Source of the DNA: an uncultured Hyphomonas sp.
GTDB lineage: Bacteria > Pseudomonadota > Alphaproteobacteria > Caulobacterales > Hyphomonadaceae
Reading direction: 5' to 3' (one strand)
Length of the DNA: 64,000 nucleotides
Assembly (NCBI RefSeq): GCF_963976075.1
Contig: NZ_CAXBJH010000001.1
Positions 34,403 to 37,547 of this stretch are shown here, piece by piece. A program made the position numbers and the translations under genes. Position 1 is the first letter of the stretch. Every line of letters starts with the position of its first letter. Below the pieces are notes generated by a model. The model did not search any database and was not told where the DNA came from. It worked only from the letters and a program-made list of their open reading frames with translations.

Positions 34403-34566
34403 GAAGAACCTCCCCGAAGTTTCCGGGCAGGCTATTTTGGATGGAATGGAGAGGCAATGCCTCAACTGCCCCGGTGCGGCTTATTCTCCCTTCCGCTGCG
34501 AAAGACAGGCTTGGCTTTGACGGCGCGGTCCCCATGTCTTGGGAACGCAATGCAGAGGGCTTTGAT

Positions 34567-35550
34567 GTGGCTGAACTTTCGATCCTGGAACTCGGACGCG
34601 TGCGCGAGGGCTTTACCCGCGCCGATGCCCTGAATGAGGCCCGCCGGCTTGCCCAGCATGCCGAGACATGGGGCTACAAGCGGCTCTGGGTCGCCGAGCA
34701 TCACAATATGCGGGCCGTCACCACGGCGGCGACCTCGCTGGTCGTCTCGCATATCGCGGCTGGCACGAAGACGATCCGCGTCGGCGCTGGCGGCATCATG
34801 CTGCCCAATCACGCGCCCTATATCATCGCCGAACAGTTCGGCACGCTGGAGGCGCTCTATCCGGGCCGCATCGACCTCGGCCTTGGCCGCGCCCCCGGCA
34901 CGGACCAGATGACCCTCCGCGCCCTGCGGCGTGACCCGACCAGCGCCGACCGTTTCCCACAGGATGTTCTGGAACTGCAGGCCTTTCTCGGTCCGGTCGA
35001 GCCCGGCCAGAAGATCGAGGCTGTGCCCGGCTCCAATTCGAATGTCCCGCTCTGGATCCTCGGCTCCAGCCTTTTCGGCGCGCAGGTCGCGGCCGCCTAT
35101 GGCCTGCCCTATGGCTTTGCCTCCCATTTCGCCCCGCAGGCGCTGGATGATGCGCTGGCTACCTATCGCGCCAACTTCCAGCCATCAGATCAGCAGAAGA
35201 CCCCCTATGCCCTGATCGGGGTGAACATCATTGCGGCGGAAACGAATGAGGAAGCGAAATTTCTCGCGACCTCACAGCAGATGTCGTTCGCGAACCTCGT
35301 GCGCGGCGACCGCAAGCTGACCCAGCCGCCCATCGACGACATCGACACATACTGGACGCCGGAAGAGAAACTGCGCGCTTCCCACATGCTGAATTTCAGC
35401 ATCATCGGCGACCGCGAGACGGTGAAACGCGGCGTCGACGCCCTGCTTGCGCGCACAAACGCTGACGAGTTGATGATCGTGTCCGACATGTATGATCCGG
35501 ACAAGCGCCTGCGCTCCTTCGAGATCATCTCGGAGGTTCTGAAGGGCTGA
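34567..35550 (+). CDS. luciferase-like (LLM class) flavin monooxygenase
   Basis: W.AEHHN, GAGGIMLPNH.P...AEQFGTL, GRIDLGLGRAPG; GTG start at 34567 (ATG at 34534 is the alternative). Confidence 0.92.
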   Translation: MAELSILELGRVREGFTRADALNEARRLAQHAETWGYKRLWVAEHHNMRAVTTAATSLVVSHIAAGTKTIRVGAGGIMLPNHAPYIIAEQFGTLEALYPGRIDLGLGRAPGTDQMTLRALRRDPTSADRFPQDVLELQAFLGPVEPGQKIEAVPGSNSNVPLWILGSSLFGAQVAAAYGLPYGFASHFAPQALDDALATYRANFQPSDQQKTPYALIGVNIIAAETNEEAKFLATSQQMSFANLVRGDRKLTQPPIDDIDTYWTPEEKLRASHMLNFSIIGDRETVKRGVDALLARTNADELMIVSDMYDPDKRLRSFEIISEVLKG

Positions 35551-35577: not shown

Positions 35578-35934
35578 TCAGACGGGACGCTTGATCTCGT
35601 TATTGTCGCCCAGCAGCACAACAGTCGGGGCATGCTGGCGCGCCTTGTCGGCGTCGACGCCGGCAAAGGCCGCGATGATGACCTTGTCGCCAGCCGCAAA
35701 GTGGCGGGCAGCCGCGCCGTTAACACCGATGGTCCTGGAGCCACGCGGCGCTTCAAGGGCATAGGTTTGGATGCGGGCGCCATTGGTGACGTTCCAGATA
35801 TCCACGCGCTCATTCGGCAGGATGCCCGAAGCGTCGAGCAGGTCCTGGTCAATCGAGACCGAGCCTTCATAGTGAAGGTCGCACTGCGTGACGGTTGCAG
35901 AATGCAGTTTGGCTTTCAGCATGTTGAGCAACAA
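35578..35934 (-). CDS. panD: aspartate 1-decarboxylase
   Basis: LKAKLH.A.VT..DL.YEG|S.SID, NG.R..TY, NGAAAR. Confidence 0.97.
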
Positions 35935-35971
35935 GGATGTATCCTCCCGGATTTATTTTATGAGCGCTTAA

Positions 35972-35992
35972 TTATGCTCACAATGAGCATAT
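35972..35992. promoter_or_regulatory. NadQ-like palindromic operator over the panD promoter
   Basis: TATGCTCA-CAA-TGAGCATA; overlaps the -10 of a minus-strand TTGCGC-N17-TATATG promoter. Confidence 0.6.
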
Positions 35993-36165
35993 AGGAAGAC
36001 CCACGGCCTTGCGCAAGGCGCTTATTGCATTGCAGCAAATGTGAGTAAAGACGGTATTGGACGTTGCCGGCTCCCCTTCCCGCGAGGTCAGGTCATGGTG
36101 CCGCTCACATACGCCTCACCCGCGAAATCTGTCTCAAAATGGCTCGCTTTGCGCGAATCCGTCTG

Positions 36166-36180
36166 TTAACAATCTTTAAC
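36166..36180. promoter_or_regulatory. TTAA-N6-TTAAC box with an adjacent GANTC
   Basis: TTAA-CAATCT-TTAAC 20 nt upstream of the lipoprotein start; GAATC at 36155. Confidence 0.5.
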
Positions 36181-36200
36181 GCTGGGGAGAGACAAAGGGG

Positions 36201-37547
36201 ATGAATGGCATGAAACAGGTGTCTGCAGGCGGTATTGTAATCGCCATGATCTTGGCGGGGTGCGCCTCAAGTCCGGAGCCGGCCCCGGCCTCTCCGCCCC
36301 CCGCAACTGGGCAGGCTCCGAATGGCCCCGTGCGCGGCATTCCCAATCCGAGCGATGATGATTTCCTCGGCGCGCCAACCCCGACCGTACGTCGTCATAC
36401 CGGCCGTGCCAGCACCGGCGCCGTACCCGCCAAGGACTATCTCCCCTACATTGATGTCGCGATTGACGAGTCGGCCGTTTATTCCGAGTTCGGAGACATG
36501 TTGCAGGACCGCTATACCCGCATCCAGATCGTCACGCTGAAGCCTGACGCCTATGACATGGAGGGGGTCACATCCGGTGTCCGCAGCCAGGAAGTCGAGG
36601 CACGCAATTATGACAAGGAAAGCCGGGGCTGGCTCTCCCGCATGATGTCATCGCGCAGCATCACCCGCACACTGATCGCCGAATTCGACGTCGCCAAGCC
36701 CGACATCACGGCAACCAATGCGCTATTCTCGTCTACCTTTTCCTCAAACAACCGCGAAGGTGAGAGCTGGACGACGAATGAGAGCATTTCGGTCTATGCC
36801 ACGCCCTATTTCAAGGTAGGCCCGAACACGACCATCGAGGCGCGCTTTCGCCTTCAGTTGTCGGATGAAAAGGAATCCTCTGCCAGCGCGAATGTGATGG
36901 GCGCGCTGACCACGGCGGCGAATTTGATTGCACCGACCTCCACACTGGTGACCTACTTCAACGCACCGCTGATGATGGAAGCCTCCAACTTCCTGAACAA
37001 TTCGACCAGCACCCTGTTCGGTCAGTCGATCACGGAGCAATCGGTCAGCGCCTTTTCCGTGAAGGCCTGGAGCGACAAGCCGATCCTCGTTGTGTCGGCC
37101 CAATTGCCTGACACGGACGACATCAAGGATACGCGCGGCAAGGGCGCCATCGGCCAATGGGCCGTCTATCTTGACCAGCCCATCCCGTCGATCTTCACCG
37201 CCGGTGTCTCCGATGCAGGCTTTCCGGATTATACGGGCGTCACGTCCGGGGATATTCTGGCGTTCGATGTGGGCGAGGATCTCACCGTCTACGATTATGT
37301 CTTTTCCCGCCTCGATCTGGCAGACCGCATTTCATATTTGAACAATACGGCCGACCCGGACGTGGCCGGTCTGATCTGCAACCGGATCGAACGCGGCCTG
37401 TCCGAAATCGGCTTCACCTCCTATGACGCCGCCGCCGCGGTCTGGGCGGCGTCGGTCTCTGACCAGTTCAATGGCAACGCCAAGGCCGCTTTCCAGGGCG
37501 AGAACACTTGCGAAGCCATGATCCGCTGGAAAGCGCTCGGCGGCTGA
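36201..37547 (+). CDS. hypothetical lipoprotein (448 aa)
   Basis: Lipobox LAG-C, Pro-rich tether, coding-type codon usage; no recognised domain. Confidence 0.8.
   Translation: MNGMKQVSAGGIVIAMILAGCASSPEPAPASPPPATGQAPNGPVRGIPNPSDDDFLGAPTPTVRRHTGRASTGAVPAKDYLPYIDVAIDESAVYSEFGDMLQDRYTRIQIVTLKPDAYDMEGVTSGVRSQEVEARNYDKESRGWLSRMMSSRSITRTLIAEFDVAKPDITATNALFSSTFSSNNREGESWTTNESISVYATPYFKVGPNTTIEARFRLQLSDEKESSASANVMGALTTAANLIAPTSTLVTYFNAPLMMEASNFLNNSTSTLFGQSITEQSVSAFSVKAWSDKPILVVSAQLPDTDDIKDTRGKGAIGQWAVYLDQPIPSIFTAGVSDAGFPDYTGVTSGDILAFDVGEDLTVYDYVFSRLDLADRISYLNNTADPDVAGLICNRIERGLSEIGFTSYDAAAAVWAASVSDQFNGNAKAAFQGENTCEAMIRWKALGG

Follow-up and report, generated by a model that had tools for sequence, protein, structure and literature searches.

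What controls panD, the gene for aspartate 1-decarboxylase, in Hyphomonas, and could it belong to a regulon described for NAD synthesis? The question is raised by a stretch of 64,000 nucleotides (the window) on contig NZ_CAXBJH010000001.1 of an uncultured Hyphomonas sp. (assembly GCF_963976075.1), in which a preliminary description had placed upstream of panD a NadQ-like palindrome, a promoter TTGCGC-N17-TATATG, and an extra TGAGC half-site. Each of these elements was located where it had been described, apart from the TTGCGC -35 box, which runs to 36016 and thereby extends 4 nt beyond the end first given for the region. The NadQ box given there is correct when compared with the consensus of Leyn et al. 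2016, ttATRCTCannntGAGYATaa (PMC5343134). The palindrome (TTATGCTCACAATGAGCATAT as read on the plus strand, ATATGCTCATTGTGAGCATAA in the direction of panD) agrees with this consensus at all positions but the final base. It precedes the TTG start codon by 38 bp and shares five bases with the TATATG -10 of the predicted promoter. As judged from comparative sequence evidence, we consider it a functional NadQ operator by which NadQ would repress panD through promoter occlusion, a reading to which we assign a probability of about 0.8. The coordinates of all features are compiled in Table 1.

Table 1. Features of the panD locus and of associated loci in the same genome (positions without prefix refer to the window; prefixes denote other contigs or extracted loci).
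Feature	Position	Strand	Basis or remark
Luciferase-like monooxygenase gene	34441-35550	+	downstream neighbor of panD, convergent
panD, aspartate 1-decarboxylase, 118 aa, TTG start	35578..35934	-	PF02261, TIGR00223
Shine-Dalgarno sequence GGGAGGA	35942..35948	-	from sequence, 7 nt before TTG; GGAG kept in alignment
Leader stem-loop (predicted)	35958..35983	-	RNA fold; UUGUGAGC (35983..35976) pairs with GCUCAUAA (35965..35958)
Extra TGAGC	35961-35965		within the leader stem-loop
Predicted NadQ operator, 21-bp palindrome	35972..35992	.	20/21 to consensus; 26.7 bits; positionally kept in Hyphomonas
-10 box TATATG	35988..35993	-	last five bases form the outer part of the left arm of the NadQ box
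-35 box TTGCGC	36011..36016	-	17-nt spacer (35994-36010) to -10
Upstream elements CTGCAATGCAATAAG (36035..36021) and CTTTAC (36050..36045)	36021..36050	-	conserved blocks, 32-sequence footprint
Predicted lipoprotein gene, 448 aa	36201-37547	+	divergent to panD; no Pfam/NCBIfam match
NadQ homolog, COG4111, 316 aa	L014:1432-2382	-	PF21906 1.6e-18; PDB 7q91 E 1.8e-79
YfbR-like 5'-deoxynucleotidase gene (HD domain)	L014:2379-3005	-	upstream of nadQ
NadQ boxes upstream of nadA, two sites	C6:155977 and C6:156082 (L002:1499-1519 and L002:1604-1624)
ORF between nadA and nadB	L011:8277-8834	-	signal peptide; no Pfam/NCBIfam family
Weak NadQ-like sequence ATATGCTTAATATGAGTATAG	L012:5511-5531 (G000 contig 13, 41510)		14.3 bits, chance range

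The PanD protein matches the Pfam family Asp_decarbox over residues 1 to 114 (9.5e-47, 158.1 bits, cut-off 25) and the TIGR00223 model over residues 1 to 116 (2.3e-46, 156.8 bits, cut-off 106), and in these alignments its TTG start codon falls on the first residue of the models. Judged by PanD, the nearest named relative is H. pacifica (93%). Since the next gene downstream is convergent, panD is considered monocistronic. The divergent lipoprotein gene adjoins panD in many, not all, Hyphomonas and Henriciella loci, with identities of 50 to 95%. A consensus scan also returned an alternative panD promoter, TTGTGA-N17-TAAAAT, which is not conserved in relatives, and TTGCGC-N17-TATATG was preferred; the NadQ box overlaps both candidates, and the exact geometry of operator and promoter depends on which of them applies. 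The CTTGC of the -35 box is kept in all 32 distinct Hyphomonas panD upstream sequences, and CC(C/T)ATAT is kept in Hyphomonas and, among the other loci displayed, in those labelled Henriciella and Ponticaulis and in several labelled as further Hyphomonadaceae, some of these genera lacking the NadQ box; in sister genera, CTTTAC occupies the place of the -35 box. Further upstream, CTGCAATGCAATAAG and the CTTTAC of Table 1 could serve a second regulator or act as an UP-like element. Related TTGCAcTGCAc elements precede panD in sister genera that lack this box, and a crude genome scan allowing one mismatch revealed no recognisable regulon for the TTGCAATGCAA-like upstream palindrome.

The specificity of the match was assessed across the whole genome (G000; Hyphomonas, 34 contigs, 3.79 Mb, 60% GC). 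In a consensus scan, the panD site and one of two sites upstream of nadA tied for the top rank with one mismatch each, followed by the other nadA-upstream site with two, so that the top three consist of panD and the two nadA sites. A weight matrix was then trained exclusively on sites upstream of nadA, 18 distinct ones drawn from 30 Hyphomonas genomes, and on no panD sites. With this matrix the nadA sites scored 32.4 and 30.8 bits and the panD site ranked third with 26.7 bits, the best score after these three being 15.5 bits. Twenty genomes shuffled inside 200-nt blocks served as the null, and their maxima ranged from 13.6 to 22.1 bits, the score of the panD site never being reached. The signal in the window is one of quality of match rather than copy number, as a loose 17-mer with up to two mismatches was not enriched there (3 observed versus 5.65 expected). 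Further candidates in the genome score at most 15.5 bits, are mostly intracoding, and are not claimed as sites; intergenic candidates are few and precede aldehyde dehydrogenase, MarR-type regulator, and desaturase genes. The sequence ATATGCTTAATATGAGTATAG is found 25 bp upstream of the aldehyde dehydrogenase gene.

The proposal presupposes a nadQ gene and copies of the motif at nad promoters, and both were found. The genome encodes exactly one protein with an NrtR_WHD domain (NrtR-type winged helix), the single NadQ homolog, which aligns with Agrobacterium tumefaciens NadQ (PDB 7q91-7q94) over residues 11 to 311; the winged-helix DNA-binding regions of the two proteins are nearly identical. 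NadQ proteins of the class COG4111 combine a Nudix-like N-terminal domain with an NrtR-type winged helix, and the homolog was assigned to NadQ, not NrtR, because it scores far under the NrtR equivalog cut-off. Homologs of nadQ are present in 22 of 24 genomes of the genus, the two without a match being only 85% and 69% complete. Neither the consensus scan nor the matrix scan of the genome revealed a NadQ box near nadQ itself, and autoregulation is unsupported. The YfbR-like gene upstream overlaps the nadQ start by 4 nt and is translationally coupled to it, an arrangement kept in all 12 Hyphomonas loci checked; this neighbor may be relevant to the nucleotide effector.

On contig 6, nadA, nadB, and nadC share a strand, one small ORF separates nadA from nadB, and two NadQ boxes precede nadA. 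One of them, TTATACTCAGATCGAGCATAA, covers the -10 of the nadA promoter TTGAAG-N16-TATATT with the same geometry as at the predicted panD promoter, and the upstream-most box lies approximately 105 bp further upstream. Both boxes are kept in 30 of 30 Hyphomonas genomes, and of the genera of the family that were sampled, almost all have such pairs. The two boxes of a pair are approximately 90 to 105 bp apart, corresponding to roughly ten helical turns, and their conservation suggests cooperative binding or looping.

The expectation that the panD box would be kept in relatives was borne out across Hyphomonas. In a first sample, all 17 genomes of the genus with panD carried a box-like element at positions -50 to -58, with at most four consensus mismatches in 16 of them. 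Addition of three complete genomes and of Hyphomonas contigs from public sources brought the set to 38 loci (32 distinct sequences) with boxes of 10 to 27 bits at -48 to -58 of panD. An alignment of the 32 sequences displays conserved blocks at CTTTAC, TGCAATGC-AATAAGC, the -35 element CTTGC, the -10 together with the box (CCyATATnCTC..GTGAGCAwA), and the Shine-Dalgarno sequence; the CTC...GTGAGCA core is almost invariant, whereas the promoter spacer varies freely. The clade of the window has the box ATATGCTC...GAGCATAA with 26 to 27 bits, another clade ATATACTC...GAGCATAT with about 20 bits, and a third group of clades ATATTCTC...GAGCAAAA with 13 to 19 bits, the half-site GAGCAAAA occurring at nadA too. 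A weaker left arm (ATATTCTC or ATATCCTC) is found in several clades (13 to 20 bits), and in a few lineages the box is eroded to 10.3, 4.5, or about 1 bit, in one case with an inserted base; selection on the panD site is therefore not uniform.

Outside Hyphomonas, the panD box was absent from the Henriciella-, Ponticaulis-, and Hirschia-labelled loci, from other Hyphomonadaceae, and from Caulobacteraceae, all of which scored below 5 bits. Other genera of this family and of the order retain nadQ and the canonical dual nadA boxes, and the skeleton CTTTAC-N17-CCATATAT is present at panD in the displayed loci of Henriciella and Ponticaulis and in several from further Hyphomonadaceae; absence of the panD box therefore does not reflect drift of the motif. 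A strict pattern combining the inner box with the N-terminal codons of PanD at a distance of 45 to 75 nt matched this genome only among 401 genomes of 308 genera, i.e., none of the 400 other alphaproteobacterial genomes, although as an exact match within a single distance window the test is narrow. The left arm of the Hyphomonas box starts with the ATAT of the older panD -10, and it therefore looks as though an existing -10 had been turned into a complete operator by changes immediately downstream. Specifically, Hyphomonas would have acquired the box on a more ancient promoter, CTT(T/G)xC-N17-CCATAT, and the box would be a genus-specific gain and an addition to the known regulon. The locus may thus exemplify regulon growth in which an existing -10 (CCATATAT) supplied the outer half-site and a few downstream substitutions finished the operator.

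This origin also bears on whether the palindrome might be the site of another transcription factor, or a chance look-alike of the NadQ box that was kept for promoter function, its left arm being the -10. The outer ATAT of this arm does correspond to the ancestral -10 of genera without the box, so that the match is partly inherited from the promoter, and the weaker clade versions score inside the range of the genome-wide chance maxima. The inner bases (GCTCA...TGAGCATAA), however, are unnecessary for a -10, yet they form the most conserved columns and equal the exact NadQ core; furthermore, a single NrtR/NadQ winged-helix protein is encoded in the genome, and no shuffled genome matches the score of the panD site. 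We therefore regard a foreign or fortuitous site as very unlikely and retain the NadQ operator as the preferred interpretation.

A second layer may be present in the predicted panD leader. The segment UUGUGAGC, comprising the operator center and right arm, can pair with GCUCAUAA, which contains the extra TGAGC, to form an 8-bp stem with a 10-nt loop. The RNA fold of positions 35983 to 35935 has a predicted energy of -12.6 kcal/mol (z = -3.08 versus shuffles), and with the operator fixed and only the downstream bases shuffled the z score is -3.8. In one Hyphomonas clade, the stem comprises 8 to 9 bp and shows compensatory changes that couple the operator spacer with the downstream arm, e.g., CUGUGAGCA/UGCUCACAG versus CCGUGAGC/GCUCGCGG; in others it is weak or missing, with only weak stems in two of them. 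The loop spans 4 to 6 nt in some clades versus 10 nt in others, and Rfam lists no known RNA family in the region from 35850 to 36260. The TGAGC had been put forward as an additional half-site. It is present, but its reading as a third NadQ half-site was rejected, as its spacing to the operator depends on the clade (6 versus 10 nt), nothing comparable accompanies the nadA operator, and the TGAGC pairs with the complementary operator right arm. More likely, it belongs to the 3' arm of a putative leader hairpin with which the mRNA would begin.

The inverted repeat might then work mainly as RNA, with the hairpin setting stability or translation of the panD mRNA and NadQ binding being secondary or absent. 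The better folding relative to shuffled sequences and the compensatory changes speak for this possibility. On the other hand, the left arm ATATGCTCA is not required for the hairpin and yet is conserved too, and there are clades with strong boxes in which the hairpin is weak or absent (z scores of -0.7 to -1.6), which renders a predominantly RNA-based function highly unlikely. Both readings can hold at once; the hairpin may form a layer added to the NadQ operator.

A role of the NadQ-bound palindrome in control of the lipoprotein gene, or of both divergent genes rather than panD alone, can be considered extremely unlikely: the box does sit in a 266-bp intergenic region common to both genes, and the lipoprotein gene is the upstream neighbor of panD at many Hyphomonas loci, but the center of the box is approximately 219 bp from the lipoprotein ATG as opposed to 38 bp from the panD start, the box overlaps the predicted panD -10, and many loci (for example, L018, L022, L025, L027-L030, L054, L056-L058, L061, L064, and L069) carry the box at an unchanged distance from panD and lack any lipoprotein homolog in the surrounding 1.5 kb. 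By its distribution among the loci, the box is seen to follow panD, not the lipoprotein gene.

A probable mode of action of NadQ at panD can be outlined. NadQ has been described as a repressor (PMC12421817; PMC5343134). The predicted operator would span the -10 and likely the transcription start of panD, and a NadQ dimer on the 21-bp palindrome, covering the -10 box to about +12, would block RNA polymerase as at nadA. Bound NadQ would shut off panD together with the row of genes nadA-orf-nadB-nadC, and an effector releasing NadQ from the DNA would turn on both aspartate-consuming cofactor branches together, namely, NAD via NadB and NadA and CoA via PanD and beta-alanine. The effector of Agrobacterium NadQ is reportedly ATP, not NAD, the protein being named an 'ATP-responsive regulator' in the title of the 2022 work of Minazzato et al., the only experimental study known for NadQ. 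Synthesis of NAD and of CoA begins here from L-aspartate, and both use ATP as the adenylate donor; joint release of nadABC and panD when ATP is high would therefore be coherent. The term 'NAD-sensing', which the preliminary description had applied to this control, goes beyond what can be shown, and its rationale for the link between NadQ and panD, a partition of aspartate, is speculation. Tentatively, and with more doubt than confidence, Hyphomonas NadQ may be pictured as more than a repressor of the NAD pathway, namely, as a nucleotide-gated, ATP-responsive switch that jointly releases the first committed steps, both consuming aspartate, toward the adenylated cofactors NAD and CoA, with the panD hairpin, formed in part by the right arm of the operator, as a post-transcriptional second layer. 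If true, no earlier case of panD being controlled by a transcription factor would be on record for Alphaproteobacteria, and NAD and CoA biosynthesis would be linked by a regulatory bridge for the first time.

Transcriptional control of panD, the entry to beta-alanine, pantothenate, and CoA, is poorly known beyond the enteric PanZ system. In Enterobacteria, PanZ (PanM), a GNAT-fold protein, is an acetyl-CoA-dependent activator and inhibitor of PanD maturation. It resembles the regulation proposed here in that the same step, supply of beta-alanine for CoA, is controlled by a cofactor-related signal; however, PanZ acts post-translationally by protein-protein contact and senses CoA, whereas the control proposed for Hyphomonas would be transcriptional and exerted by a repressor of the NAD pathway. 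NrtR and NadR are, like NadQ, nucleotide-responsive repressors of NAD synthesis or salvage, and NrtR shares the C-terminal winged helix, but the operator motifs and effector domains of both differ from those of NadQ. To our knowledge, panD is not among the described targets of NrtR or NadR.

Five complete Hyphomonas genomes (G012, G013, G022, G047, and G052) possess panC but lack a PF02261 gene; panD is therefore dispensable in the genus, and beta-alanine must come from another route in these strains. This fits the situation across Alphaproteobacteria, in which the canonical decarboxylase (ADC) is predominantly absent and can be substituted by beta-alanine synthase of uracil degradation (PMC7142369). 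The scale of the finding is modest: lineage-specific regulon additions are common, and here a single genus is concerned, in which panD can be dispensed with.

Within the NadQ literature, the closest counterparts are the nadABC systems of Alpha- and Betaproteobacteria (PMC2330246; PMC5343134; PDB 7q91-7q94), which have the same 21-bp palindrome and consensus and, going by the predicted panD promoter, the same core-promoter position, and whose cognate regulator and canonical nadA boxes are also present in this Hyphomonas genome. The published regulon table, for which the genome set included Hyphomonas neptunium, contains nadA, nadC, nadB, nadE, nadQ, nadD, proA, HNE_0691, and duplicates, but does not list panD (Leyn 2016, PMC5343134), in line with the initial impression that the link had not been described. 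Among the papers searched, none brings pantothenate, beta-alanine, or aspartate decarboxylase together with NadQ or COG4111. NadQ regulons described so far comprise NAD genes only, apart from proA and one hypothetical gene, and the Hyphomonas target panD, in contrast to these, falls outside NAD metabolism. A precedent for a cofactor or vitamin repressor gaining panD as a lineage-specific regulon member is BioR, for which one panD entry in one alphaproteobacterial genome is given in the supplementary table of Leyn 2016 (PMC5343134); BioR, however, is a GntR-type regulator linked to biotin and the case is confined to that genome, whereas the NadQ box is genus-wide in Hyphomonas. Taken together, panD appears to be a new target in a known regulator-operator system, a proposal with good support from comparative evidence, and one known regulator probably couples the supply of a CoA precursor with NAD synthesis in this marine genus. 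The box offers a case in which possible cross-talk of two cofactor pathways sharing L-aspartate and the adenylate donor ATP can be tested directly. With respect to the hypothetical member of the published regulon, the ORF between nadA and nadB is probably the 'HNE_0691 hypothetical protein'; its C-terminal part of approximately 130 residues is 77 to 95% identical across 30 genomes of the genus.
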